From: an uncultured Bifidobacteriaceae bacterium
GTDB taxonomy: Bacteria > Verrucomicrobiota > Verrucomicrobiia > Limisphaerales > UBA11358
DNA length: 32,089 nt
Assembly: GCA_964413505.1 (NCBI GenBank)
Contig: CAYPTV010000001.1
Coordinates: 1 to 32,089 of the forward strand
Reading direction: 5' to 3'
Shown here: one piece after another, positions 764-19,334 of the stretch
Layout: each line of letters opens with the position of its first letter
Numbering within the stretch: the stretch's first letter is position 1
The notes under the pieces: generated by a model
What the model was told of the DNA's origin: nothing
Databases searched by the model: none
The model's input: the letters and a program-made list of their open reading frames with translations, nothing else
Position numbers and translations under genes: made by a program

Positions 764-2068
764 ATGATTTTTTTAACGCCATTGTTTTTCTGTAGCCGCT
801 TTTGCAAAAAAAATTTCCACTGCTGCGCGCTGCTCCTGCTTTTGGCGGCACTGCCGGCGTCGGCGCAGCAGGCATTGCAAAATTCGATTGCGGGCGACGC
901 GGCTGCGGCGGATCGAAACCAGCAGATGCAATCCCCGGATTACACTTTCAAAAAAGGCGACTTTCAAATGCTGGTCATTCCATCGCTTGGATTTGACTGG
1001 AACGACAATGTGAACCTCACCCAGACGAACATCTGGCAGGATTACATCATCAAGCCGGCTGTCGGCATCACGGCCAGTTATCCGTTCACCCAGCGCAATC
1101 TTTTGTATCTGAATTTTTCAATCGGTTACGACCGTTACATTCTTCATCCGCAATTGAGCACATTGGACATCAATTCCACCTCAAAGACCGGGCTTTCATT
1201 CGACGTGGGAATCAAGGATGTGACGACAAGCTTTCACGACTGGATCAGCTATTCGCAAGACGCCTCCCAAGATGCGACCGTGGTCAACACACCCAGCTAC
1301 GGCACCTTGCAAAACACCGCCGGGTTTGCCAGCACCTGGGACTTGAATCAAATCACGTTGTCCGCCGGCTATGATCACCAAAATGTCATCGCCACCAGTA
1401 GTGCATTTGATGACATCAATAACGCCTCGGAAATGTTGTTCGCGCGCGCCACGCTTCAGGTGCATCCCAAAGTGACCGTCGGCATTGAGTCTTCGGCCTC
1501 ATTCACCACCTATGAACAGCAAGCCTTGAACAATAATAACGCCTACTCTGTCGGACCATATGTGGAGTTTCGGCCCGGCTCATATTTCACCTTGACCGTC
1601 CGCGGCGGCTATTCCATCAACCAGTTTGCAAACACCAGCACCAACATCCAGACCGCAAGCCAAGATTCGTGGTATGCCAGCGTCAACATCTCGCATCAAC
1701 CGAGGGAATCCATCAGCTACTCTCTCGGCATCGGGCGTGAAGTGCAGGCCGGTGCCCAGTCGGATCTGGTTGAAGACTGGTATGTCCGCCCGGCCATCAC
1801 ATGGAAAATCATCAACGGCCTGGATTTCGTAACGTCCATGTCTTACGAACACGGCGACCAAGGCGTGGGAAGCGTGGGAAATTTGCCGGGAAATCCCAAC
1901 GGCAATTTTGACTGGTATACCGGCGAGGTGAGCCTTCAGCATCCGCTCACCAGCCGCCTCGCAATGAGCCTGGATTACCGGCTGACCGTGCGCTCATCCG
2001 GCACGCCCAATGACGGCTACACTCAAAACATGGTCGGCTTTGAACTGACCTATCACCTGCCCGAATGA
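764..2068 (+). CDS. Putative outer-membrane beta-barrel protein of the polysaccharide export module
   Basis: Signal peptide ALLLLLAALPASAQQ. The rest of the protein is a long series of alternating amphipathic strands (TLTVRGGYSINQF, YASVNISHQP, ISYSLGIGREVQ, YVRPAITWKI, LAMSLDYRLTV, MVGFELTYHL). Its stop overlaps the next gene's start (ATGA at 2065-2068). Confidence 0.55.
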   Translation: MIFLTPLFFCSRFCKKNFHCCALLLLLAALPASAQQALQNSIAGDAAAADRNQQMQSPDYTFKKGDFQMLVIPSLGFDWNDNVNLTQTNIWQDYIIKPAVGITASYPFTQRNLLYLNFSIGYDRYILHPQLSTLDINSTSKTGLSFDVGIKDVTTSFHDWISYSQDASQDATVVNTPSYGTLQNTAGFASTWDLNQITLSAGYDHQNVIATSSAFDDINNASEMLFARATLQVHPKVTVGIESSASFTTYEQQALNNNNAYSVGPYVEFRPGSYFTLTVRGGYSINQFANTSTNIQTASQDSWYASVNISHQPRESISYSLGIGREVQAGAQSDLVEDWYVRPAITWKIINGLDFVTSMSYEHGDQGVGSVGNLPGNPNGNFDWYTGEVSLQHPLTSRLAMSLDYRLTVRSSGTPNDGYTQNMVGFELTYHLPE

Positions 2069-2838
2069 ATTATTTCCTGAAACCATCAGCAACCAGTGAA
2101 TTGCCGGAGACCGAAAATTCCGTCCCGCGACGAAGGCACCTGCGCAATTTGAATTTAAACAATTTTGTCAAAGCGATTCTGTTTGCCGCCGGAATTTTTT
2201 GTTGCAGTGTTCTTAAAGCGGCGGACACCGGGCTTGCGACAAATACAATTTCAAGCAATTTGACAGCGACAGCGGCCGGAAGTTCCGGCATCAACGCGGC
2301 CAATGTGCTGGACGACAAATACCGGCTTGTAATTGGGGATCAATTAAGTTTTCAGATCATTGAAGATGAGGATGATCCCGTGCATCTCGTTGTCACTGAT
2401 TCGGGAGATTTGCAGGTTCCCTACATCGGCCGTTATCCGGCGGTAGGCAAGACCTGCAAGGAACTGGCGTCGGCGCTGAAGGTCGAGTTGGAAAAAGAAT
2501 ATTACAAGCAGGCCACCGTGATCATCGCCGTGGATGCAAAACCCGAAAGTCGCGGCAAGATTTATCTCGTCGGCGCCATCCGCGCTCCCGGGCCGGAGGA
2601 CATTTCCAGCGACGAAGTGCTGACGGTGAGCAAGGCCATCCTGCGGGCGGGCGGTTTTACGGATTACGCGGATGAAAAAAACGTCAAGGTGACGCGCAGC
2701 GCCGGAGGCGGCAACAGCGGCGACAAGACGTTCGTCGTGAACGTGTCCCGGATTCTTGAAGATGGCAAAACGGCGGACGACCTGCCGTTGCAGCCGGGCG
2801 ACCTTATATTTGTTCCCGAACGGATGGTCCGGTTTTAG
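2065..2838 (+). CDS. Polysaccharide export protein (OPX family, Wza/GumB-like; Poly_export + SLBB)
   Basis: YRLVIGDQLSFQI...DSGDLQVPYIGRYPAVGKTCKELASALKVELEKEYY...GKIYLVGAIRAPG...VSKAILRAGGFTDYAD...LQPGDLIFVPER matches the Poly_export and soluble-ligand-binding beta-grasp pattern. An N-terminal hydrophobic anchor or signal is present. Confidence 0.8.
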   Translation: MNYFLKPSATSELPETENSVPRRRHLRNLNLNNFVKAILFAAGIFCCSVLKAADTGLATNTISSNLTATAAGSSGINAANVLDDKYRLVIGDQLSFQIIEDEDDPVHLVVTDSGDLQVPYIGRYPAVGKTCKELASALKVELEKEYYKQATVIIAVDAKPESRGKIYLVGAIRAPGPEDISSDEVLTVSKAILRAGGFTDYADEKNVKVTRSAGGGNSGDKTFVVNVSRILEDGKTADDLPLQPGDLIFVPERMVRF

Positions 2839-2844
2839 GCAAAC

Positions 2845-5010
2845 ATGAAAAATCTAACACCAGTTCCGCCGTCGGATCCGGGCTTCCAGTTGATGGAGCC
2901 GATGACGAACAGCCACGCCGCGCCGCCTCCGAAATTTCGGCCGCAGAAGCTCTTGTTCTTCCTGCGGAAATTTTGGTGGATACCGCTCGTTGCGATGGTG
3001 TTGAGTTTCGGAATAGCCGTCTATAAATTTTTTCGGACCCCGCCGATATTTGTTTCATATGGACGTTTGGTGGAGACTGAAAAGCTGCAATTACCGGGTG
3101 GCGCCGGCTTTTCCGGTGACCAGGCCAACGGTTCTGAAAGGGACACTTATCTCGGCACGTTGTCTGAATTGCTCCGCGATGAAACAATGAGGGATATGAC
3201 GACGAACAGGCTGGCAACATTCTCCACAAGCAAGTATGTCCTGGAAAATCTCGATCTCCCCGTGGACATTCAAGTCTACACCTCGGCGAAAAGTTCCATT
3301 TATACGATTGAAACACGCAGCAAGAACCCGGCATTCACCTCGGCTTTCCTCGACGCTCTCATGGAGTCGTATCTGGATTATCGCAAAACCACCCGGCGCG
3401 AAGTTTCCGAAGGAACGCTGGCTTCCATCTCCGAACAAGTTCAGCGGCTGGAGCGCGACATGAAGGACGGACAGAAGGCGCTGAACGACTATGAACAGAG
3501 CAACAATTTTGCGGTCTTGCAGGAAGAAAGCACCATCGAAGCGTCCTATCTGGTCAAGTTGAAAACGGAATTGTCCGACTATCAGCTGGAAGTGCAGTTG
3601 CTTGCCGCCAAGGAACTCGAGGCGGATTCGGGCCAGGCGGGAGCAACGAACGACAGTGACACGATTTTTGATTCGCTGCGCACTTCCGGCTCCGCCGTGT
3701 CTTCCGCCTCCGGCCGGATGGATGCCGAACAGCAAATTGATCTGCTCAAGGCGGATCGCGAAAGACTGTCCAAATATCTTCTTCCCAAGCATCCAAAAAT
3801 GGTCAAGCTGGACGAACAAATCGCCCGCGCCCAAAAATTGATTGACGTCTACAGCCAGCAAAACCACGAGCAAATTGCCGCCGCGCGCGAGGCACTGCAG
3901 ATTAAAATTGACAGCGTCGAACAATTTATCACGGAGTGGGAGGCCAAGGTGGCGGACGCCAACCAACGCATCGCCACTGCGGACGGTCTCAAGCAGGACG
4001 TTCTTCGCAATCAAGGGTTGTATGACCGGCTCACGGCTCTTTTGCAAAATGTTGACATCAGCCGGAACATTGACCAGGACACGCTTTCCATTTTGGATCA
4101 CGCCACGCCGTCCTCGCGTTCCTATTCAGAAGGAAAAACCGCGATCATTCATTCCATCTTCATCGGGCTTGGCCTGGGTCTGGGAATTGTCCTGCTGATC
4201 GCCATCCGCGACGACCGGTTTATTTCAATTGGCGAAGTGACCGAAAGGTTTGGCGACAACGTCGTCGGCCAGGTGCCGGAAATTCCAGAATTTTCAAGTT
4301 CAGCGTCGCTGTCCCTTTTGGAGGACAACGATGACCGTCATATGTATGCCGAGTCCTATCGCAACCTTCGTTCGGCGCTCCTCTATCTTGGCGTCGAAGG
4401 CCGGCGGCCCAAGGTCGTGCTTGTCACCAGCTCGGTGCCGAATGAAGGCAAGTCCACCATTGCCACCAATCTAGCCCGCGCGCTGGCGTTGGGCGGCGCC
4501 AAGGTGCTGCTGATGGATGGAGACATGCGCAAAGGGCGCATCCATGACATGTTGAAGCTGCAATCCAAGCCCGGCTTGAGCGATTTGCTGCGCCAGCCGG
4601 ATGATCCAGAAAAATTCATCCAAACCACCGACCTGCCAAATTTCAATTTCCTGTCCAGAGGCAGCATCACCCGCAATCCCGGCGATCTGCTTCTAAGCCC
4701 GGCGCTGGACCAGATTCTCGCCCGTCTTCGTGATCAATACGATCACATCCTGATTGACAGTTGCCCGGTGTTTGCGGCGGACGACACGTCCAACATCGCC
4801 CCCAAGGTGGACGGCACGTTGTTTGTGGTGCGCAGCCGTTTTTCCCATGCCCGCATGGTCCGTGAGGCGCTGGAACTGCTCTTTCAGCGTCAGGCCAAGG
4901 TGCTTGGATTGATTTTGAACCGTTCGGATTCCAACGCCCGCTCCAATTACTATTACAAGTATGGCGAGTATTACTCGACCAATGTCCCGGACGAGGCTGA
5001 AGCTTCGTGA
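2845..5010 (+). CDS. Polysaccharide co-polymerase with C-terminal BY-tyrosine kinase (Wzc/GumC-like, PCP-2a)
   Basis: Two TM segments (WWIPLVAMVLSFGIAVY and IFIGLGLGLGIVLLIAI) bracket a long coiled-coil periplasmic region. The kinase has Walker A VTSSVPNEGKST, A' LLMDGDMRKG and B HILIDSCP. The C-terminal Tyr cluster is SNYYYKYGEYYS. Confidence 0.88.
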   Translation: MKNLTPVPPSDPGFQLMEPMTNSHAAPPPKFRPQKLLFFLRKFWWIPLVAMVLSFGIAVYKFFRTPPIFVSYGRLVETEKLQLPGGAGFSGDQANGSERDTYLGTLSELLRDETMRDMTTNRLATFSTSKYVLENLDLPVDIQVYTSAKSSIYTIETRSKNPAFTSAFLDALMESYLDYRKTTRREVSEGTLASISEQVQRLERDMKDGQKALNDYEQSNNFAVLQEESTIEASYLVKLKTELSDYQLEVQLLAAKELEADSGQAGATNDSDTIFDSLRTSGSAVSSASGRMDAEQQIDLLKADRERLSKYLLPKHPKMVKLDEQIARAQKLIDVYSQQNHEQIAAAREALQIKIDSVEQFITEWEAKVADANQRIATADGLKQDVLRNQGLYDRLTALLQNVDISRNIDQDTLSILDHATPSSRSYSEGKTAIIHSIFIGLGLGLGIVLLIAIRDDRFISIGEVTERFGDNVVGQVPEIPEFSSSASLSLLEDNDDRHMYAESYRNLRSALLYLGVEGRRPKVVLVTSSVPNEGKSTIATNLARALALGGAKVLLMDGDMRKGRIHDMLKLQSKPGLSDLLRQPDDPEKFIQTTDLPNFNFLSRGSITRNPGDLLLSPALDQILARLRDQYDHILIDSCPVFAADDTSNIAPKVDGTLFVVRSRFSHARMVREALELLFQRQAKVLGLILNRSDSNARSNYYYKYGEYYSTNVPDEAEAS

Positions 5011-6291: not shown

Positions 6292-6678
6292 ATGAGAGAT
6301 TACACGAAGATTGAAGCGTGGAAACTGGCGGACGATTTGACGGTGGCCGTCTATGAACAAACACGGCTATTTCCAAGAGAGGAAATTTATGGGCTGACCA
6401 GCCAGTTGCGCCGCGCTTCGTATTCCGTGCCTGCAAATATTGTGGAAGGTTCCTCGCGCGAGAGCAAAAAGGACTACTTGCACTTCCTTTACATTTCGCG
6501 TGGCTCGTTATCGGAAACCCAGTATTTCATTCACTTGTCACGGCGGCTTGGCTATCTGTCTGTCGCGGATGCAGAGCGATTGATTGGACAGACCCGACAG
6601 ACGTTTGCGTGTTTGCACGGCTTGATTAAGGCAGTCGAAAAAGAGGCGGGGAAGTTTGGAAAGTCAGTAGTCCCGTAG
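6292..6678 (+). CDS. Four-helix-bundle protein (23S rRNA intervening-sequence protein / Avd-like family)
   Basis: YTKIEAWKLADDLTVAVYEQTRLFPREEIYGLTSQLRRASYSVPANIVEGSSRESKKDYLHFLYISRGSLSETQYFIHLSRRLGYL is the canonical motif set of this family. Confidence 0.88.
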   Translation: MRDYTKIEAWKLADDLTVAVYEQTRLFPREEIYGLTSQLRRASYSVPANIVEGSSRESKKDYLHFLYISRGSLSETQYFIHLSRRLGYLSVADAERLIGQTRQTFACLHGLIKAVEKEAGKFGKSVVP

Positions 6679-8024: not shown

Positions 8025-8600
8025 ATGAAATTTCCGTTCGGAAATCGTTTGGTCTCGGCGATGCGCACCCGCAACAGGTTTAGCCCGTTCCAAATCTGGT
8101 TGCATCAGCAAAAATCCTCGGGCTGCTTCATTGACCAACGGATTGACTTTACTGGCCGGTCTGATGGATATACATGGGTGCGAATTCATCCGGGTGCGGC
8201 TCTTGAGCGCGATATTACAATTTGGATTTCGCCTGACACAGGCGCACAGCCAGAACTCATATTGGGTGAAAAGGTTTTTATCGGCCGCAATACTTACCTT
8301 GGTGTCTATAAACCCGTCCACATTGGGAATTGTGTGCTTATCGGCGCTTATTGTTATCTGATTTCAGCAAACCACAACATTGAGCGGAGGGACATTCCAA
8401 TCCGTGATCAGGGTTTTACGGGAGCACCGATAGTAATCGAAGATGATGCATGGCTGGGCATCCATGTGGTGGTGTTGCCCGGAGTAACCATTGGACGAGG
8501 CGCGGTCATCGGCGCAGGCAGCGTGGTGACTTGCGATATTCCAGCGTGGGAGATATGGGGTGGCATTCCCGCACGTTTCATCAAGTCGCGTCCACAATGA
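8025..8600 (+). CDS. Left-handed beta-helix (hexapeptide-repeat) O-acetyltransferase
   Basis: IGRNTYLGVYKPVHIGNCVLIGAYCYL...IVIEDDAWLGIHVVVLPGVTIGRGAVIGAGSVVTCDIPAWEIWGGIPARFIK. The start is placed at ATG 8025 because the track's 7923 start overlaps wzt. Confidence 0.8.
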   Translation: MKFPFGNRLVSAMRTRNRFSPFQIWLHQQKSSGCFIDQRIDFTGRSDGYTWVRIHPGAALERDITIWISPDTGAQPELILGEKVFIGRNTYLGVYKPVHIGNCVLIGAYCYLISANHNIERRDIPIRDQGFTGAPIVIEDDAWLGIHVVVLPGVTIGRGAVIGAGSVVTCDIPAWEIWGGIPARFIKSRPQ

Positions 8601-9700
8601 AAGCAAACCGGGCAATTTTTACAATCGTCACCAAATCCTATCTGGCTTATGCCAGGGTGATGGCAAAGGAACTGCGCGCGCGTCATCCTGAAATTCTTTT
8701 TTATGTCTTTCTGGCCGATCGTCCTGATGGTTGTTTCCAGCCCGAACAAGAACCGTTCACCATCATCCCGCTGGCGGATTTTTTCCCTGCAGAATTGCTG
8801 CCGACGATGCCGGGCTACTATACGGCCTATGAGTTTTGCAATGCACTCAAACCGTTTGCCCATATTCATCTTGCCACCAAAACCGGAGCGGAACGATGGC
8901 TATATCTCGATTCGGACATATTTGCGTGCGGTAGTTTTGATTCCCTTTTTGAGGAACTTGACGACTGTTCGATTTTGCTGACCAGCCATATTCTTAAACC
9001 AGTTAAGATCGGGATTTCGGAACGAACGGAGTTGAATATTTTGAGTGCTGGCATTTATAACGGGGGGTTTGTCGGTCTAAAAAGAACGGAAGTGACGATG
9101 AGTTTTTTACTTTGGTGGAGGGAGCGGCTGATCTGGCATTGTCTGCATGATGTGCGTGGTTTGGAAGTTGATCAAACCTGGCTGAATTTCGTGCCGTCGC
9201 TTTTCCCTGAGGTAAAAGTTCTAAAAAATCCGGAGGTCAATGTGGCCTATTGGAACTTCCATGATCGCGAACTGGAACTGGATGCCAATGGAGACGTGAG
9301 GGTGGCTGGAAGGAGAATTCCCTTTTTTCATTTCAGCGGCTGGGATTGGAACGCGCCAGATAAGATTTCAAAGCATGCCTCGCCAGACTTGGGAAATTCC
9401 GCCCAAGCGTGGAATCATCTCCGTGACGCGTATTTGCGACGTTTGATTGAGGAATCAGTGCAAATCAGCAGCGCATGGCCGTATTCCTTTGGCAAAACAA
9501 CTGGCGGCCAGGACATTTCTTCCTCCGCGCGCCGCAATTTTTTAAGTTATTGCCGAAAACACAGTGGGCAGCCACTCGAGGTTAATATTTTTTCCAATCC
9601 CGAGTTCTTTCGCGACCCGCCACCGAAGCCCATATCGTTGAAAGATGCCTCAACGATTTTTATTGGGGCGCTGCTTCGAGCATCAGGCTTAAGAAAGTGA
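8597..9700 (+). CDS. Putative GT-A fold glycosyltransferase (GT8-like, DxD = DSD)
   Basis: IFTIVTKSYLAYARVMAKEL...WLYLDSDIFACGSF...YNGGFVGLKR...VDQTWLNFVP...VAYWNFHDR...IPFFHFSGW. The ATG at 8597 overlaps the upstream stop (ATGA). The track's 8450 start lies inside the previous gene. Confidence 0.6.
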   Translation: MKANRAIFTIVTKSYLAYARVMAKELRARHPEILFYVFLADRPDGCFQPEQEPFTIIPLADFFPAELLPTMPGYYTAYEFCNALKPFAHIHLATKTGAERWLYLDSDIFACGSFDSLFEELDDCSILLTSHILKPVKIGISERTELNILSAGIYNGGFVGLKRTEVTMSFLLWWRERLIWHCLHDVRGLEVDQTWLNFVPSLFPEVKVLKNPEVNVAYWNFHDRELELDANGDVRVAGRRIPFFHFSGWDWNAPDKISKHASPDLGNSAQAWNHLRDAYLRRLIEESVQISSAWPYSFGKTTGGQDISSSARRNFLSYCRKHSGQPLEVNIFSNPEFFRDPPPKPISLKDASTIFIGALLRASGLRK

Positions 9701-11062: not shown

Positions 11063-12016
11063 GTGATTTCAGATACACTCATCCCGCCGGTTCCAGAGGA
11101 CGGAAAACTGCGCCAGTTCTGGTCAGTGATGATTCCGGCCTACAATCCAAACAGGGATTATCTGGAGCAGACATTAAGGAGTGTTCTTGTCCAGGATTCC
11201 GGTTCGGCGCAAATGCAGATCGAGGTGGTGGATGATTGTTCGCCCAAGGTGGACGTGGCGGCGATGGTGCGGGAAATCGCCGGGGATCGAATCAAAGTTT
11301 CGCAAACGTCCAAGAACCTTGGCCTGGCCGGTTGCTGGAACACCTGCATAGAGCGTTCTCGTGGCGAATGGGTGCATATCCTGCATCAGGATGATTATGT
11401 CTTGCCCGAATTTTATCAAACACTGGCAAAGACGGCAGGGCGTCATCCGGAGATTGGCCTGCTCGCGACGCGTTCATTTTTTATAGATCATGAAAATACA
11501 ATTCTAGGGGTCACGCCCCGGTTATGCGGAATGGAAAATGGCTCGCGTAAAGCAGACGATTTCTTTTACGGCACACCGATTCAATGTCCCGGGGTGGTTG
11601 TGAAACGATCTGTCTATCAAGCGCATGGAGGGTTCAGGTCGGATTTGATATTTACCCTGGACTGCGAAATGTGGGCGCGGGTTATCAGCAACGCGGGCGG
11701 ATTGGTTACATCAGCAGTGTTAGCCTGTTATCGTTCTTCGGATGGCAATGAAACCAGCCGATTAAAACGATATGGCAAAGATCTGCACGACTACGAACGG
11801 TTGAACCAGCTTTTTGCATCCCGCTACCCGAGTTTTTCAGCAAGGCGTGCTCGAGAACGGATGTGCGACATGGCGTTGGGGCAAGCGTTGCAATTTTCAT
11901 TGGCAGGTGACCACGCCTCCTCCAAGGCTAATTCAGCCTATTGGAGGCAAAATGCAACGGCCAAGTTGTGGTTTCGCCGGCTGACGCAAAAGCTGGAGCG
12001 AACTTTGTTCAAATAA
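11063..12016 (+). CDS. Glycosyltransferase family 2
   Basis: WSVMIPAYNPNRDYLEQTLRSVLVQ...QIEVVDDCS...ILHQDDY. The start is a GTG at 11063; ATG 11129 is the alternative. Confidence 0.8.
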   Translation: MISDTLIPPVPEDGKLRQFWSVMIPAYNPNRDYLEQTLRSVLVQDSGSAQMQIEVVDDCSPKVDVAAMVREIAGDRIKVSQTSKNLGLAGCWNTCIERSRGEWVHILHQDDYVLPEFYQTLAKTAGRHPEIGLLATRSFFIDHENTILGVTPRLCGMENGSRKADDFFYGTPIQCPGVVVKRSVYQAHGGFRSDLIFTLDCEMWARVISNAGGLVTSAVLACYRSSDGNETSRLKRYGKDLHDYERLNQLFASRYPSFSARRARERMCDMALGQALQFSLAGDHASSKANSAYWRQNATAKLWFRRLTQKLERTLFK

Positions 12017-12105
12017 TCATTCCGGATGACGCAGACGAAGCGGATAAATATCAAGAAAATCCGCGTTCATCAGTGAAATCTGTGGATTCAAAAGGGTATC
12101 GCCCG

Positions 12106-12437
12106 CAAAACACTTCGTAAAACTGTCAAAACGATTTGTGATTGGAGCATAACGATTCATGTCGCGGACAAATCCCTTCGTATTTGCCTCAAAACACTGT
12201 TATGCGCTGGCTAAAATCTTTTGTTCGGGAACAAAACACTGTTGTTATGTGCAAAACACTTTTGTATGGAGCCGGATACGATTTGTTTGCGGCAGAACAC
12301 TTTTACTTTGGGACAAAACACTGTTGTTCCGGCCCAAAATGAAAGTGTTTCAGTCAAAACACTGTTGTTCCGGTGTAAAACACATCGTCTTTGAAGCCAT
12401 TCAATTCATGTTTGCGCAAAAACTGGGATTATCTTGT
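12106..12437 (+). repeat. Degenerate tandem array of about 16 units of 20-21 bp (core CAAAACACTGTTGTT)
   Basis: Units start at 12106, 12127, 12148, 12169, 12190, 12211, 12232, 12252, 12273, 12293, 12314, 12335, 12355, 12376, 12397 and 12417. caaaacactgttgttccgg is identical at 12314-12332 and 12355-12373. Confidence 0.85.
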
Positions 12438-12550
12438 TCACAAACAATGCTGGTAGGGCGCGTCACTTGTATCTTGTATTTTATCTTCCTTGTTTGGCGA
12501 CAGCCAAACGGGAAGTTATGTGCATAATCTCACATCAGTGCCAAAAATGC

Positions 12551-12578
12551 TTGAAAATTTCCTCATTTTGTGTATTTT
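12551..12578 (+). promoter_or_regulatory. Candidate sigma70-like promoter for the giant gene
   Basis: TTGAAA (12551-12556), a 16-nt spacer, then TATTTT (12573-12578) with TG immediately upstream. If used, it excludes the GTG 12570 start and gives a very short leader to ATG 12594. This is a pattern match only. Confidence 0.25.
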
Positions 12579-12593
12579 ACAAGGCATAATTTC

Positions 12594-15500
12594 ATGCAAC
12601 AATTGACAAAGCCAAGGCTGTTTTGCTGCATAAAACGTTTTCTGACGGTTGCTGCGGTTATCCTCGCATTTCAAGCGGTGCTGACACGCGGTGGGCTTCC
12701 CAATCCTGTTGTGCCCATCACATGGAATGGTGCCGCAAGCGGTTTGCCCAACGGGAACTGGGATATTCTTAACACCGCAAACTGGGTCACCACCTCGGGA
12801 GGCGCGCCTTACGAATATCAGGACACGAGCGCGGTGACGTTCGATGATTCGCTGGCCGGCACCACCAATGTCATCCTGACTACGACGCTTTCACCCGGCA
12901 GCATCACGGTGAACAACACGCTTTCAAATTATGTGTTCAGCGGCTCGGGCAAAATCAGCGGGACAACCGGCTTGACAAAAACCGGCAGCGGCACATTGGT
13001 TGTGGACAACAGCGGCTCGAATGCTTTCAGCGGCAGTGTCACCATCAGTGCCGGGACAATCCAGATTGGCAACGGCGACGCCAGCGGAAACCTGCCGGGT
13101 GCGGTGATTGACAACGGTTCATTGATCTTCAACCGTGGCGATACCAGCCTCACCCATGCGGGCGTCATTTCTGGAACCGGCACGGTGTTCAATAACGGCA
13201 GTGGCACGGTGACTTTGAGCGTTGCCAACACCTTTACTGGCGGGCTCACCCTTAACAACGGCACGTTGATGGTCAACAGCACCGGCAATGGCAGCACTTC
13301 GTTGGGTGGCGTGGCCAACAACACCAGTTCAACCGCTGCCGCCAATGTGACCGTCAACGCCGGTGCCACCCTGGTGGGACTTGGTGCCGATGCATTTGGT
13401 TACTATCCGCATACAGCACCCGGAACCATCTTCATCAACGGTGGAACCGTTACGGACGTTGGAACCTCCAGTTATCGTATCACGCTGCCAAATCTGACCT
13501 TCACCGGCGGCACACTGGCCAGCGCCGCAGGGAATGCCGGCGACGCCAATGGGAATTACTCACTGTATGGCACCGGAGCGCCGTGCACCATAACCACCTT
13601 GAGCAACAACACAACGGCGGTCATCAGTGCTGGAATAATAACTTTGCAGCAGAACAATCAACCCACCGGAACGACCGCCTTCAATGTCGCTGCTGGCAAT
13701 GTCACCGGTGGAATGACTCCCGGAGTGGATTTACTCGTGTCTTCAGTCATTGCAAATTTCGGCGCTGAAGTGGGCAGCGTTCTAAAAACCGGTTCGGGCG
13801 TCATGGCTTTGGATTCAACCAACCTCTACACCGGCACGACGACTGTCAGCGGCGGGACGCTACAGTTGGGCACGACCAATGACACGGCTGTGTTGGCCGA
13901 GCCCGTGGGCACAGGAGCGGTAACCAACAATGCCATCCTGAATTTTGCCAGCGGCCAGGGGGTCGCCGTCCACAACATCATCAGCGGCACTGGCGCGGTG
14001 GTGGTGAGCAGCGGAACCAACATCCTTACGGCCACGAACACCTATGCTGGGAATACGATGGTGAAAGCGGGCATACTGTTGTTGACTGGCAGCAGCTCGA
14101 TAGCCAACAGTCCGACCATCACGTTAGCGAGTGGCGCAACATTTGATGTGTCCCAGCTGGCCAGTCCGTTCACCGTGGGCGCGGGCCAGACTTTGGGCGG
14201 CAGCGGAATCATTTCAGGGAACGTGATTGTCAATGGAAAGCTCCAGACCGGCGTGACCAATACAATTAACGGGAATCTCACTTACAATACCGGAACCGAG
14301 GCGGATTTTAATTTAAACACCAGCGCCACGGGCGGAGGCAATGATCAGACAGTCTTGAATGGCGCTGGCAGCATCCTGTCTTGCGGCGGAGCGAGCATCG
14401 GCATCAATTGCGGCGCAATCCTGGATCAGGCAAATGATTACACGCTCTTCAACCTGACCGGCGGCTCGGCCAGCATCGTGAGCAATTTCAATGTCATGCC
14501 AGTCTGGACTGGAACGACTCCGGCCAATGCCAGTTCCTATGGTATTGTGATCTTGCGAAACAAAGTCCTGCTTCACTTTAATTCCACTGGCACGACAAAT
14601 CTACCGGTGGTTACGAACCTTCCGGCCTCAAACATTGCTGCAACGACTGCGACTTTGAACGGCCAGGTGCTTTCGACGGGCGGCCAGTATCCGGCGGTCA
14701 ACATTTATTACGGCACAACCGATGGCGGGACAAATCCGGCGGCGTGGGCAACGAATGTTTCTTTGGGGTTGCAAACCGGATCCTTTGCCGCGGCGGCTTT
14801 CAACCTGACTACAAACACCACCTACTACTTCACCACTTCAGCCTCAAACTCGGCGGGCATGGCCTGGGCTACGCCTTCACAGTCATTCACCACGACGGTG
14901 GCGAGCGTGGCCGTGGCAACAAACCTGCCGGCTTCAAATGTGCAGGGCAGCTCGGCAATCCTGAACGGCCAGATTCTCTCCATCGGCAGTCAAGTCCCAA
15001 CAGTGACCTTGTATTATGGCCCGACCGATGGCGGAACCAATGCCTCAAACTGGGCGAACAATGTTTATCTCGGCCAGCAGGGCGGAAACTTTATCGTCAC
15101 AGTCACCGGCCTGTCCACCAACACGACTTATTATTATGCTGCAGCCGCCACAAACATCGCCGGCACGGCCTGGGCCAGCCCTTCAGCCAACTTCACCACA
15201 CTGCCGACGGCTCTCGTAGTTTCGGTGCTGACCTATCATTATGACAATGCGCGAACCGGGGCCAACACCAACGAGACATTGCTGACACCTTCGATTGTCA
15301 ACACGAACAGCTTCGGTCTATTGATCAAGTATGTGGTGGACGGGTTTGTTGTCGCTCAGCCATTGTATGTGCCAAGCGTGGCCATTCCCGGGCAAGGCAC
15401 TCATAACGTCGTGTTTGTGGCGACCGAGAATGCCAGTATTTATGCCTTTGACGCGGACGGCAACACGGCGGTAAATGGCGGATTATTATGGCACACCAAC

Positions 15501-18500
15501 CTGGGGATAGTGCCTTTACTCAGCAATGGTGAATTTGGCTATCGTTATGGAATCGGTAATGGCCTCAACATAGGTTATTATGAACAGGGCATCACCGACA
15601 CGCCTGTCATCGACCCTGTTTCTGGAACGATTTATGTGGATGTTCTTACGCGTGAAGTCACGACAACAACGAATTATTACCATCGTATCCACGCCTTGAG
15701 CATCACCAACGGCATGGAACAATCCTACAGCCCGGTGGTGGTCACTGCTTCGGTTCCTGGAACCGGCATGGACAGCTCGAACGGAGTGGTGACATTTAAT
15801 GCCAAGCAACAAAACCAACGCCCCGGACTGACGCTTGCCGGCGGAATTTTATACGTCGCCTATGGCAGTTTTAACGACACCGATCCGTTTCATGGCTGGG
15901 TCATGGGTTTCAACGCCACCAATCTCGTTCAATTGACCAACTGCATTTTCAACACCACGCCCAACGCGACGACAAATGTATTTGGCCCAAATGCCGGTGA
16001 AGGTGCGCTGTGGATGGGCGGTGATGGATTATGCGTGGACGCCAACAACAACCTCTTTTTTCAAACGGGCAATGGCAGCTTCAGCGCAAATACCAACGGC
16101 GGGGATTACGCTGACAGCATGATCAAGCTCTCCACGTCCAATTCACTGGCGGTGGCCGACTATTTCACCCCCTACAATCAGCTCACGCTGGCCAACTTCG
16201 ACATTGATCTTGGCTCGTGCGGCGCTGTCTTGTTGCCAGACTCGGTCGGGAGCACGAACCATCCGCATCTGATCGTGTCAACCGGCAAAAGCGGAACGAT
16301 TTATCTCGTGGACCGGGATAACATGGGACATTACCACGGCACTGATGGCATCAACGGAAATGACAGCCAGATTGTGCAATCCGTGATTGGTGCGACCGCA
16401 AGCACATGGAGTTCCCCCGCCTATTTCAACAACCAGATTTATCTGCAGCCCAGCAGCGCCGCAATGAAGGCATTCATTATCACCAATGGCGTCATTGTCC
16501 CATCGATCACCTCCGTGGCTGCGGCGGGCGTTGGCCTGGTTAACGGCGGGCCGATCATTTCCGCCAACGGCGCAAGCAATGGGATTGTCTGGGTGCTGAA
16601 TAACAACTCTGGTGGCGGCACGGAGACATTGTATGCCTGCACCGCCAACAATATCGCACAGCAGCTCTACAACAGCAGCCAGCTTTCGCGGGACAATCCA
16701 GGCTTCGGGATAAAGATGACCACACCCATGGTGGCCAACGGGAAGGTGTATGTCGGGGCGCAGTATGCGTTGTCGGTGTATGGATTGACGACATTTGTGG
16801 CGACGCCCACCATCTCGCCCAACGGCATCGCATTCACCAATTCAGTGACGGTGACATTGAGCGACGCGACGGCGGGCACGGCGATCTATTACACCCTGAA
16901 CGGCACTATCCCGACGACGAATTCGCTGCTATACACAGGGCCCTTTGCCATCACCACCACGTTGAACTTGCAGGCCATCGCGGTAAAATCCGGTGCGGTG
17001 AACAGCGGGGTGGCGTCTGCCTCTTTTGTCAACACGGCCGCCTTGGGCAGCGGCATCGGATTGCTGGGCCAATACTGGACGAACACGAGTGCGCTGGCGT
17101 TCACGAATATTTCATTCAACACTGCGGCGACATTGACGCGGACGGACGCGGTGGTGAACTACAATTGGAGCACGAACGGGCCTGATCCCAGCATTGGGCA
17201 GACGAACTTCATCGCCAGCTGGACCGGGTCGGTGCAGCCGCAATACAGCGAGACCTACACCTTCACCACCGTTGCGGATGACGGGGTGCGTCTGTGGGTC
17301 AACGGGCAGTTGTTGATTGACGACTGGAACACTCATTCATCTACGACGACCAACAGCGGGAGCATCTCGCTCAATGCGCAGGAGCTTTACAACATCCAGA
17401 TGGATTATTTCCAGGGCGGCAGCAACGCCGTGGCACAACTGATGTGGAGCAGTCTCTCCGCGGCACAAAACATCATTCCGCAGACACAACTTTATCCCTA
17501 CACGAACTCGCCGCCGGCGGTCGTGCTTTCAAGCCCGGCGAACAACTCAAGTTACACCGCGACGGCGAGCGTGACGATCGGCGCGAATGCGGATGCGGCC
17601 TATAATCCAATCAGCGCGGTGAGTTTCTACGCCAACGGCGTTTTGCTGGGCACGGTGAGCAACAGCCCCTACGCACCGCTTTACGAACTGACGGCAACGG
17701 GGCTTGGCGCGGGCAGTTATGCGTTGACGGCGGTGGCCACGGACGGGAGCGGATTGTGCAGCACGTCGGCGTCGGTGAACATCACGGTCAACGCTGGGAG
17801 CGGAGCGCCCTACGGACTGACAAACACCGTTCCGGTCTCCGCGTTCCTGAACATGCCGACGACCTTCAACGGGGCATTGCCGGCATTGCTCTCAGGAACG
17901 GGAGCATTCAGCGACACCACCAACCGCATACCAGCTGGCGGATTGATTCCCTACCAGCCCAACACGCCGCTGTGGTCGGACGGCGCGGTCAAGAGCCGGT
18001 ATATGGTGGTGCCCAATCCCGCTCCGAGCGGGAGCGGGACGATCACGCCTGATCAGCAAATCGCCTTTGCACCGACCAACAACTGGACGTTCCCTGCGGG
18101 GACTGTGTTTGTGAAGAACTTCGACCTTGTGGTGGACCAGACCAGCACGAACACGCCCCTGCGCCGGCTGGAGACTCGTTTGCTGGTGCGGAACATCAAC
18201 GGAGCGGTGTATGGCGTGACCTACAAGTGGCGTCCGGACAACAGCGATGCCGATCTGCTCTCAAGCAGCCTGACGGAGAACATCTTGATCACCAATGCTA
18301 CAGGTGTGAGCACTCAGGCTTGGTATTACCCCAGCCCTGCGGACTGCCTGACCTGCCACACGCCCGTGGCCAATTATGTGCTGGGCGTCAACACACGGCA
18401 GTTGAACGGCAGCCTGACCTATCCCGCCACCGGTGTCACGGACAACCAGCTGAGGACATTGAACCATCTGGGCCTGTTCAACCCGGCGTTCGACGAATCA

Positions 18501-19334
18501 ACCATCACGAACTTTGAAAGCCTCTCGGCGCTGACCAATCTCACCGCATCACTGGAGGAACGGGCTCGCTCTTACCTTGATGCCAACTGCGCGCAGTGCC
18601 ATCAGCCCGGCGGATCGGGCATCACCTTCGACGCGCGCTACGACACGCCGCTCTCCCGGCAGAACATCACCAACTATCCGGCAGCATTCTCGCTGGGGGT
18701 GGACAGCGCCTGCATCATCAAGGCGGACGATGTCTGGCGTTCGGTGCTGCTGGCGCGCATCAACACCAATGCCGCGGCTATCAAGATGCCGCCGCTGGCG
18801 CGCAGCATCATTGACACCAACGCCGTGCAGGTGATTGCCGGCTGGATCAACAGCCTGTCGGGCATGCCCACCCTGGCACCGCCGGTCATCACGCCAAACG
18901 GCGGCAGCTACTACGCCTCGGTGGGTGTCACCCTCACGCCGCCCGACACCAATGCGGCCATCTACTACACGCTGGACGGCTCTCTGCCCACGACCGGTTC
19001 GCTGCAGTATTCGGGCGCGTTCAACCTGACGGGCAACGCGACCGTCACGGCCAGCGCGTTCGAGACTAACTTCAACAACAGCATCGGGGCCGGCGCGCAG
19101 TTCCTGGTGCAGCCGCTCAACTTCACGTCGCTGGGCTACAACACGGCCGGCGGCCAGTTCCAGATGGGCTTCGAGGGCGTCATGGGCGAAACCTATGTGC
19201 TCCAGGCCACCACCAATTTCACCGACTGGACCCCCATCAGCACCAACAACGCCACAACCAATTTCTTAAACCTCACAGACCCAGACTCCACCAACTTTCA
19301 GAACAGATTCTACAGGGTTCTGTTAATACAGTAA
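12594..19334 (+). CDS. Giant secreted multidomain surface protein (PATR beta-helix repeats, FN3-like x2, beta-propeller, PA14, Ig-like, dihaem-type module)
   Basis: A single uninterrupted ORF of 2254 aa from GTG 12570, or 2246 aa from ATG 12594. It has an N-terminal hydrophobic signal/anchor [22 protein letters not shown]. Domain evidence is listed in the sub-features below. Confidence 0.9.
   Translation: [2246 protein letters not shown]
12930..14580 (+). other. Domain: autotransporter-associated beta-strand (PATR) repeats / beta-helix region
   Basis: At least four PATR-type units: [109 protein letters not shown] and [35 protein letters not shown]. Confidence 0.75.
14598..15209 (+). repeat. 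Two tandem 102-aa (306-nt) FN3-like modules inside the giant gene
   Basis: TNLPASN starts at 14613 and again at 14919. Both copies share LNGQ(V/I)LS.G...P.V..YYG.TDGGTN...W.N.V.LG.Q.G.F......L..NTTYY......N.AG.AWA.PS..FTT at roughly 50 percent identity. Confidence 0.7.
15228..16790 (+). other. Domain: beta-propeller-like region (PQQ-like repeat type)
   Basis: [21 protein letters not shown]...AQPLYV...[19 protein letters not shown]...GTIYVDV...GILYVAYGS...[10 protein letters not shown]...[12 protein letters not shown]...[17 protein letters not shown] shows recurrent strand motifs typical of this propeller class. The assignment is from memory of the family and is not HMM-verified. Confidence 0.5.
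17050..17460 (+). other. Domain: PA14 (carbohydrate-binding/adhesin-type)
   Basis: GLLGQYWTN...[11 protein letters not shown]...[43 protein letters not shown]...[24 protein letters not shown] is the classic PA14 pattern. Confidence 0.8.
17805..18865 (+). other. Domain: two-CXXCH putative dihaem c-type cytochrome-like module
   Basis: CLTCH at 18345-18359 and CAQCH at 18588-18602. The context [18 protein letters not shown]...ETRLLVR...YKWR...[15 protein letters not shown]...IKMPPLAR resembles, from memory, the TIGR03806 / SO2930-type dihaem family. Confidence 0.5.

Follow-up and report, generated by a model that had tools for sequence, protein, structure and literature searches.

A two-haem c-type cytochrome module of the TIGR03806 superfamily within a giant multidomain protein of a wetland bacterium

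Why a protein with the look of a surface adhesin should carry two haem-attachment motifs is the question raised by a giant gene on contig CAYPTV010000001.1 (assembly GCA_964413505.1, from an uncultured bacterium placed in the Limisphaerales), of which a stretch of 32,089 nucleotides was analysed here (the window). In the translation of 17805-18865 on the forward strand, which is open over 353 residues, the motifs CLTCH (18345-18359; residues 181-185 in module numbering) and CAQCH (18588-18602; residues 262-266) are in frame and lie 81 residues apart, in agreement with the spacing of about 80 residues given by a first-pass annotation of the sequence. The whole protein has 15 cysteines, four of them inside these two motifs, and its composition predicts 0.0008 CXXCH motifs per protein; a pair of them is far beyond chance. 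The first-pass annotation had placed the motifs in an adhesin-like extracellular protein, with either a redox or ligand-sensing function or a structurally repurposed haem fold. Judged by its sequence, the stretch of 353 residues belongs to the TIGR03806 (SO2930) superfamily as a genuine c-type cytochrome domain with two haems, and we propose that it is probably the built-in redox partner in an exported, carbohydrate-directed, quinohaemoprotein-like oxidoreductase.

The family TIGR03806 (chp_HNE_0200, “SO2930 family diheme c-type cytochrome”, of the NCBIfam kind subfamily_domain) matches residues 1771-2096 of the whole protein with 201.8 bits (E 1.4e-59), and the excised module with 207.7 bits (E 2.2e-61). 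The likeness to this family, which the first-pass annotation had noted from flanking strings (PLWSDGAVKSRY, ETRLLVR, YKWR and IKMPPLAR, all of which are found in the translated module), extends over positions 2-314 of the 314 in the hidden Markov model (HMM). The match is significant and full-length, but its 202-208 bits lie under the curated cut-off of 313.3 bits. The same is true of all five module copies in the genome of this bacterium, the best of which reaches 248 bits; the assembly derives from a wetland sample, has 768 contigs and is 74% complete. In Pfam, the module gave nothing beyond weak matches to cytochrome c models near its second motif, and neither the single sequence nor a 117-sequence profile matched any Protein Data Bank (PDB) chain at E<=1. 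A literature search on TIGR03806, SO2930, HNE_0200 and P460-like domains yielded no functional study of the family. As annotation the gene is ordinary, being one more member of a catalogued, uncharacterised family.

A HMMER search against 1.84 billion representatives at 50% identity returned 6872 relatives with E<=1e-3, 2232 of them with E<=1e-30. We aligned 117 homologous full modules of 43-72% identity (alignment A1) and built a further alignment (A3) that includes a canonical stand-alone member, a 382-residue protein from a gammaproteobacterial genome (L103) with 402.5 bits to TIGR03806, whose gene immediately follows one for a TIGR03805 beta-helix protein. In both alignments C181, C184, H185, C262, C265, H266, M328 and P329 are invariant, so that the cysteines and histidines of both motifs and one methionine are conserved in relatives as far as the canonical member, the outcome of a check on axial ligands that the first-pass annotation had suggested. 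The canonical member has 27% overall identity to the module and has in common with it both CXXCH motifs, the Met-Pro pair, K104, E123-T124 and Y140. The histidine of the haem 1 site (CLTCH) lies at 18357 and that of the haem 2 site (CAQCH) at 18600; the invariant Met-Pro pair is encoded at 18786-18791 and an invariant glutamate, E123, at 18171. The methionine of the Met-Pro pair is the expected sixth ligand of haem 2.

A maturation pathway, likewise named for checking by the first-pass annotation, is present in the genome as System II, with a CcsA-type protein (PF01578, 78 bits) and ResB (PF05140, 41 bits) both above their cut-offs; CcmE was not found in the 74%-complete genome. Two genes for pyrroloquinoline quinone (PQQ) synthesis, pqqC with 353.3 bits (above its cut-off of 240) and pqqE with 502.6 bits (above 381), lie together on a small contig (C176). 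The PQQ-type clients recognisable in the same incomplete genome comprise two genes of the PQQ glucose/sorbosone dehydrogenase (GSDH) type, on contigs C85 and C396, and four unclassified eight-bladed propellers, and no classical PQQ-dependent alcohol dehydrogenase (ADH) was found in it.

The module belongs to an open reading frame (ORF) that spans 12570-19334 (+) in one frame and encodes 2254 residues when counted from the GTG at 12570; the public protein collection has a 100% identical copy that begins with the ATG at 12594 and counts 2246 residues. The ORF is laid out as follows.

12594-12689 (+), probable Sec signal peptide, recognised by eye in the translation from a basic n-region followed by a hydrophobic stretch
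12690-14609 (+), PATR or autotransporter-associated beta-strand repeats (Pfam PF12951 four times, TIGR02601)
14607-15221 (+), two Fn3-like modules, from a weak Pur_ac_phosph_N match and homologous segments in five relatives
15222-16814 (+), eight-bladed PQQ-like beta-propeller, residues 885-1415 (alignment A2, PDB profile matches, structure model, Foldseek)
16815-17039 (+), first CHB_HEX_C / Fn3_assoc immunoglobulin (Ig)-like module (Pfam PF13290, PF13287)
17040-17504 (+), PA14 domain of the carbohydrate-binding type (Pfam PF07691, E 4.5e-25; match at residues 1513-1639)
17505-17804 (+), Big_7 bacterial Ig domain (Pfam PF17957, E 1.2e-11; match at residues 1649-1721)
17805-18863 (+), TIGR03806-like dihaem cytochrome c module, residues 1746-2098 (HMM, conservation, structure model)
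17862-18500 (+), within the module, N-terminal beta-sheet haem domain, P460/c'-beta-like (VIA-align, hhalign with controls, BLASTP)
18501-18863 (+), within the module, C-terminal class-I-type cytochrome c domain (Pfam cytochrome c models, VIA-align to FoxE)
18864-19079 (+), second CHB_HEX_C / Fn3_assoc Ig-like module (Pfam, second stretch)
19080-19331 (+), C-terminal domain of about 85 residues, a possible sorting domain (tblastn and ORF ends)

The claimed fusion downstream of PA14 and Ig modules is thus real, both preceding the cytochrome in a single ORF. The more informative neighbour, however, is the PQQ-type beta-propeller in the same protein rather than the PA14/Ig part, and it turns the reading away from an adhesin and towards a redox enzyme.

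This arrangement recurs across the family. Among the nearest 150 cluster representatives, 137 exceed 500 residues and 13 are shorter, with a median of 1310 residues. The statement that such modules normally stand alone accordingly holds for canonical members above the cut-off, of about 380 residues and encoded beside a TIGR03805 beta-helix gene, but not for the wider family, where fusion is the rule and not the exception. An N-terminal GSDH propeller is present in 86 of the 150 and the eight-bladed propeller cassette in 24. The GSDH class runs from propeller to module and then to LamG, F5/8-type-C, PA14 or type IX secretion system tails, an order that fits nine of nine sampled proteins. The eight-bladed cassette, found in at least 20 representatives and recurring in Verrucomicrobiota, runs from propeller through CHB_HEX_C, PA14, Big_7, dihaem module and CHB_HEX_C to the C-terminal tail. 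In the remaining class, the module occurs with FG-GAP/UnbV_ASPIC propellers, MBG repeats or DUF4214, or in fragments. A search limited to giant proteins found the module in more than 2100 clusters, from Verrucomicrobiae, Limisphaerales and Pedosphaera. Some of these clusters bear labels already, namely “uncharacterized repeat protein (TIGR03806 family)”, “autotransporter-associated beta strand protein” or “PA14 domain-containing protein”. Fold clusters of the AlphaFold DB and ESM Atlas agree with this picture.

Single genomes repeat the pattern. Of the five full module copies in the genome of this bacterium, those on C1, C79 and C110 accompany an eight-bladed propeller, that on C396 a GSDH domain, and that on C245 stands nearly alone with one CHB_HEX_C beside it. 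Haloferula sp. BvORR071 has about 20 copies. In Cellvibrio sp. 79 (L089 4255-9819), an 1854-residue protein holds the module between GSDH and four F5/8-type-C modules plus ThuA; its gene adjoins one for a TonB-dependent receptor, ThuA is of the trehalose-utilisation type, and the genus is a cultured one. Altogether, the module is not the accessory of an adhesin but a fixed part of a conserved cassette, to which an N-terminal PATR/Fn3 stalk has been added here.

Of the 150 module relatives, 25 also have the C-terminal domain of about 85 residues, to which no Pfam or NCBIfam family corresponds. It ends in RFYR[VLAIT] plus zero to six residues and closes at least eight otherwise different large proteins of this genome, other ORFs with an RFYRV-type tail lying on contigs C79, C158, C105, C264, C26, C20 and C190. 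Its distribution resembles that of a common signal for sorting or anchoring.

The propeller (residues 885-1415) has no Pfam or NCBIfam match, and was characterised with a profile built from 25 homologues (alignment A2). Against PDB sequences, this profile matched quinohaemoprotein ADHs only, namely 1kb0 (E 1.5e-5), 1yiq (E 7.8e-4) and 1kv9 (E 0.017). The predicted structure has eight blades, with a pLDDT of 84 and a pTM of 0.90. Its top Foldseek match is the Gluconobacter membrane ADH (8gy2_A; E 1e-15, TM-score 0.60 by query), followed by 7wmk, 6zcv, 1w6s and 4mae (E 1e-10 to 1e-12), which include methanol, XoxF and PedH dehydrogenases. In protein numbering, W1148, N1168 and D1213 are invariant among the homologues, and D1103, D1211 and K1240 nearly so. 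In propeller numbering, the HMMER alignment to 1kb0 sets the invariant W264, N284 and D329 and the near-invariant K356 opposite W245, N263, D308 and K335, with the near-invariant D219 one residue off E185 of 1kb0; the spacings are 20/45/27 compared to 18/45/27. In 1kb0 these four residues are the tryptophan of the PQQ floor, a metal-ligand asparagine, the catalytic aspartate and a lysine; the active site of this enzyme class also includes a metal-ligand glutamate. Pfam PQQ_2 matches one of the propeller paralogues, at an E-value of 0.008 only. We suggest that the propeller may be a very remote PQQ-type dehydrogenase.

At the putative catalytic aspartate, the propeller has D327-I-D329 (protein residues 1211-1213; 16200-16208), an Asp-x-Asp in which the first aspartate is near-invariant and the second invariant, in a register uncertain by two residues. 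A D-x-D signature sets lanthanide-dependent PQQ dehydrogenases apart from calcium-dependent ones. The Asp-x-Asp of the propeller resembles this lanthanide-type signature, and is only a lead.

The dihaem module was modelled with a pLDDT of 95.8 and a pTM of 0.93. Foldseek found nothing significant for the model in the PDB or AFDB-SwissProt. Compared exhaustively by VIA-align with 48,161 chains, the model had six matches at Z>=5, every one a haem protein and five of them P460 or cytochrome c'-beta. The best was the Thermus cytochrome c'-beta (8brk_A, Z 7.2), with 118 of 135 residues aligned to model residues 24-201, followed by the Methylococcus P460 (6hiu_B, Z 6.8), the Nitrosomonas c'-beta (7s5o_A, Z 6.7) and two further P460s (2je3_A, Z 5.3; 6amg_A, Z 5.1). 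The sixth, the dihaem iron oxidase FoxE (5mab, Z 6.5), covered model residues 249-352. These matches suggest that the module is composed of a P460/c'-beta-like beta-sheet domain around haem 1 and a class-I cytochrome c domain around haem 2. Consistent with the latter, all 117 modules match Pfam Cytochrome_CBB3, 109 match Cytochrom_C and 76 match PSCyt1, with weak CCP_MauG matches in 17.

The sequence relationship of the N-terminal domain to P460 is harder to establish. Pfam PF16694 (P460) matches it with 16.3 bits (E 0.013), below the 27-bit threshold and only over profile positions 107-118 around the CXXCH motif; such weak matches occur in 67 of the 117 members, at best with an E-value of 0.0019. 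The domain alone gave only CXXCH-level noise against PDB sequences, and the whole module compared by hhalign with a single P460 sequence reached a probability of 1%, a match appearing only with profiles on both sides. Comparison proteins with PF16694 were taken from verrucomicrobial and proteobacterial genomes, which sample few P460 clades. BLASTP aligned the N-terminal domain with one of them collinearly from FPxG to CXXCH (E 0.018). Profile against profile, the domain matched a diverse P460-family set with a probability of 83.9% and an E-value of 7.7e-6 over 76 columns, compared to E-values of 0.0096-0.96 for the reversed and 10 column-shuffled controls. With the CXXCH motif removed from both sides the register was unchanged (E 5.4e-4, 55 columns). 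The evidence for relatedness beyond the CXXCH motif is moderate and short of conclusive. No literature linking the P460/c'-beta fold to TIGR03806 was found.

The P460 likeness extends to a single lysine. K104 (18114-18116) lies in a motif FPxG-x4-K, here FPAG99-TVFV-K104, and the fetched P460-family proteins have FP[DEN]G-x4-[K/M/A/R] in its place. Position 104 is lysine in 113 of the 117 modules of A1 and invariant in A3. In the Methylococcus protein McP460, Gly73 and the cross-linking Lys78 are conserved in all of 144 P460s (PMC6427953), and Met79 of NeCP-beta occupies the cross-link position (PMC11928373). By remote alignment, K104 would correspond to this cross-link position at G+5. Moreover, the N-terminal domain has no invariant histidine or methionine in A1, which suggests that haem 1 is without a conserved protein distal ligand, as in P460 and c'-beta. 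Acidic residues conserved near K104 are D/E107, D111 and E123, whose register to Glu96 and Asp102 of P460 could not be mapped.

Position 105 is histidine in 62 of 64 GSDH-type proteins and N, T, H or E in the propeller type. His105, present in 80% of the family, was considered as a universal distal ligand of haem 1 and rejected, the residue being asparagine here, threonine in the canonical stand-alone member and variable in the propeller class. Proteins of about 300 residues annotated as “cytochrome P460” were likewise considered as intermediates and set aside, as they consist of tandem P460 domains and have no Met-Pro class-I half. They form a clade of “cytochrome P460 family” proteins of 278-305 residues with a CXXCH motif in each of the two domains, a dihaem form distinct from TIGR03806.

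On the domain-level family, haem-ligand conservation, recurrent fusion, predicted folds and maturation and PQQ genes established here, we propose the following as to where the protein lies, which haems and PQQ it binds, what it acts on and how electrons move. The protein would be exported by Sec, across the inner membrane at least, and the System II machinery would attach the haems outside the cytoplasm. Haem 1 would sit in the beta-sheet domain with the histidine of CLTCH as its proximal ligand, and haem 2 in the class-I domain between the histidine of CAQCH and Met328. The propeller would oxidise a carbohydrate-type substrate held by the PA14/Ig modules, and the electrons would pass to the His/Met haem, then through or at haem 1, and on to an outside acceptor. 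The protein would thus be a self-wired quinohaemoprotein-like oxidoreductase, encoded in this lineage within an exopolysaccharide locus.

Several observations weigh against this proposal. BamB and tetrathionate hydrolase match the propeller fold equally well in Foldseek, and no gene of the genome, the giant one included, matches TIGR03075 at E<=1e-3. When the propeller profile was compared with a bona fide XoxF (670 bits to TIGR03075), hhalign gave a hit of 4% probability in another blade register and hmmsearch no usable alignment, so that the active-site mapping relies solely on the three quinohaemoprotein ADH alignments. The protein has no vicinal Cys-Cys pair. Three domains of about 330 residues in all separate the propeller from the haem module. 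The potentials of P460-type haems are low, at -200 to -430 mV (PMC11928373), so low that haem 1 would accept electrons from PQQH2 poorly. In addition, the module is found in the absence of a dehydrogenase-like partner, next to FG-GAP/UnbV_ASPIC, MBG, DUF4214 or a beta-helix neighbour. Conversely, contig C244 encodes at 925-4719 (+) a fourth eight-bladed propeller paralogue, a complete ORF of 1265 residues with zero CXXCH motifs, which indicates that the propeller can work without a fused haem module, or with a separate partner. In favour of the proposal, three wetland metatranscriptome runs yielded contigs that match the gene exactly, haem module included, and are consistent with its transcription in situ, with the caveat that RNA libraries can carry DNA.

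The strongest alternative is that the module is itself catalytic. Haem 1, five-coordinate or cross-linked to a lysine, would react with H2O2, O2, NO or hydroxylamine, and haem 2, with its His/Met ligation, would feed or drain electrons, as in the bacterial dihaem peroxidases; the propeller and the sugar-binding modules would supply electrons or position the enzyme, an arrangement that overlaps with the built-in redox partner proposed above. The structural neighbours at Z>=5, all of them haem proteins and all but one P460 or c'-beta, agree with it, as do the profile match that exceeds its controls and persists without CXXCH, K104 at the position of the McP460 cross-link (Gly73/Lys78; PMC6427953), the lack of an invariant histidine or methionine in the N-terminal domain, and the many module proteins that have no dehydrogenase partner. 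The low potentials of P460 and c'-beta haems (PMC11928373) also favour a catalytic haem 1 with haem 2 as the wire. However, the Pfam P460 match is sub-threshold (16.3 versus 27 bits) and confined to the surroundings of CXXCH, Foldseek against the PDB gave nothing significant, and the residue equivalence comes from remote alignment with no coordinates, in which the proton-relay carboxylate of P460 could not be mapped. Moreover, a stand-alone enzyme would have no use for the PQQ-type propeller that accompanies the module in 73% of its near relatives. We regard a catalytic module as possible, though unlikely.

A bolder extension of this idea is that the N-terminal half of TIGR03806 forms a third, very large and so far unrecognised branch of P460/c'-beta that has kept the lysine, in which haem 1 would be a catalytic haem of the P460 type, cross-linked to the lysine or five-coordinate at least, and a sugar dehydrogenase would drive small-molecule chemistry. 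We put it forward tentatively, as a rather unlikely proposition.

The view of the protein as a surface adhesin or electron conduit, close to that of the first-pass annotation, would have the haems sense redox state or a ligand, or pass electrons to insoluble or humic acceptors in peat, beside a propeller with no dehydrogenase chemistry. The PATR repeats, Ig-like modules, PA14 domain and shared C-terminal tail do look adhesin-like, the source is wetland or peat, the gene lies in an exopolysaccharide locus that is conserved in an orthologue with an 89%-identical haem module, and non-catalytic propellers of the BamB type fit the fold equally well. Nevertheless, two haems would be a small number for a conduit spanning 2254 residues, the invariant polar residues of the propeller align with active-site residues of PQQ-dependent ADHs, and most relatives fuse the module to bona fide GSDH domains. 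The Pfam and NCBIfam matches of the ORF include the PATR repeats and no autotransporter barrel family, and an orthologue with an 85%-identical haem module lies in an unrelated gene context. Taken together, these points make an adhesin or conduit improbable.

A repurposed haem-less fold, with the CXXCH motifs serving a structural role in disulfides or metal binding, is very improbable. CcmE was not found, but the genome is 74% complete and uses System II. Such a fold is disfavoured by the invariant haem ligands, the motif cysteines and histidines and the Met-Pro pair being kept across the 117 modules and the canonical member at only 27-72% identity. In addition, the genome encodes System II, Pfam cytochrome c models recognise all members, and the predicted folds are those of haem proteins.

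The surroundings of the giant gene form an exopolysaccharide locus, with a Wza-like exporter, a Wzc-like protein, an ABC-2/Wzt transporter, many glycosyltransferases and acyltransferases. The orthologue with the 89%-identical haem module lies in the same kind of locus, whereas the context of the orthologue at 85% is unrelated; the exopolysaccharide setting is thus lineage-specific and not a family trait. Upstream of the giant gene, the ORFs 12159-12527 (+), of 122 residues and just upstream, and 8450-9700 (+), of 416 residues and beyond two glycosyltransferase genes, have no Pfam match. Exact metatranscriptome matches cover 11990-12770, bridging the 122-residue ORF and the beginning of the giant gene. 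In addition, a small gene for a “23S rRNA-intervening sequence protein” (PF05635, E 2.6e-33) lies at 6292-6678 between the ABC-2 permease and Wzt genes, and is kept in place, together with a second copy, in the orthologous locus of a relative (L020 6489-6854 and 25047-25424).

The giant gene itself adds little that is unique beyond its setting in an exopolysaccharide locus, and the interest lies in the hypotheses at the level of the family, in which exported proteins of soil and wetland bacteria combine c-type haems with PQQ-type propellers and sugar-binding modules. Should these be self-wired oxidoreductases of carbohydrates, bacteria would have their own counterpart of the dehydrogenase-cytochrome enzymes with which fungi drive oxidative polysaccharide breakdown, and peat a route of carbon oxidation that has not been accounted for. 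The P460 likeness of the haem 1 domain touches a field whose 2025 review holds the fold to be unique to two small families (PMC11928373). If a third P460 branch were true, giant proteins with PQQ propellers, numbering in the thousands across Verrucomicrobiota, Planctomycetota, Bacteroidota and Proteobacteria and including the one described here, would be self-contained machines for chemistry outside the cytoplasm, for example on O2, H2O2 or nitrogen oxides.

Compared to known systems, the module resembles canonical TIGR03806 proteins in the end-to-end HMM match, the 81-residue distance between its CXXCH motifs, the Met-Pro pair, K104, E123-T124 and Y140, and differs in being embedded at residues 1746-2098 of a 2254-residue protein instead of standing alone in about 380 residues. 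The usual pairing of TIGR03806 with TIGR03805, a parallel beta-helix protein, has no clear parallel in this 74%-complete genome, where the best TIGR03805 match has 22.5 bits against a cut-off of 141.5 bits. The dihaem peroxidases CcpA and MauG combine one His/Met electron-transfer haem with one haem whose distal site is open or labile. The two-haem logic of the module would be similar, but its first domain is predicted to be a P460-like beta-sheet domain whereas theirs is helical, and there is no significant match beyond the class-I half (YhjA 9qdt, VIA-align Z 3.4).

With P460 and c'-beta (PF16694; 2je3, 6hiu, 6amg, 6hih, 7ead/8brk, 7s5o), the N-terminal domain shares the predicted twisted antiparallel beta-sheet with a CXXCH near the C-terminal end, a profile match that runs collinearly from FPxG to CXXCH, the lysine at G+5 (as in the P460s) and the lack of a conserved distal ligand. 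It differs in about 60 extra residues, including an extra hairpin, and in being joined to another haem domain, of class I, as part of giant multidomain proteins. The known members are small homodimers, the analysed sequences come from proteobacteria, and the fold has been called unique to both families (PMC11928373).

Similar to the quinohaemoprotein ADHs (Comamonas testosteroni qhEDH, 1kb0; Pseudomonas putida ADH IIB, 1kv9; 1yiq; membrane ADH, 8gy2), the protein combines a putative PQQ-type propeller and c-type haem in a single polypeptide. However, its cytochrome is a dihaem one, with a P460-like and a class-I domain, compared to their one class-I domain, and it has three sugar-binding or Ig domains between propeller and cytochrome in a protein four times larger.

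The secretome of Teredinibacter turnerae contains GSDH-Cyt c-carbohydrate-binding module (CBM) proteins that have been compared with the fungal AA12 enzyme CcPDH (PMC12055684). Like CcPDH (AA12-AA8-CBM1), cellobiose dehydrogenase and the T. turnerae proteins TERTU_2567 and TERTU_3803, the protein described here would follow the logic of a secreted, cofactor-dependent sugar dehydrogenase with a built-in cytochrome and CBM (PMC4133262, PMC12055684). The likeness to the T. turnerae proteins is one of described architecture. Most relatives of the module are composed of GSDH, module and CBM-like domains. Towards the fungal enzymes, the likeness is an analogy to a b-type cytochrome domain and not homology, and the propeller here is eight-bladed whereas the GSDH type is six-bladed.

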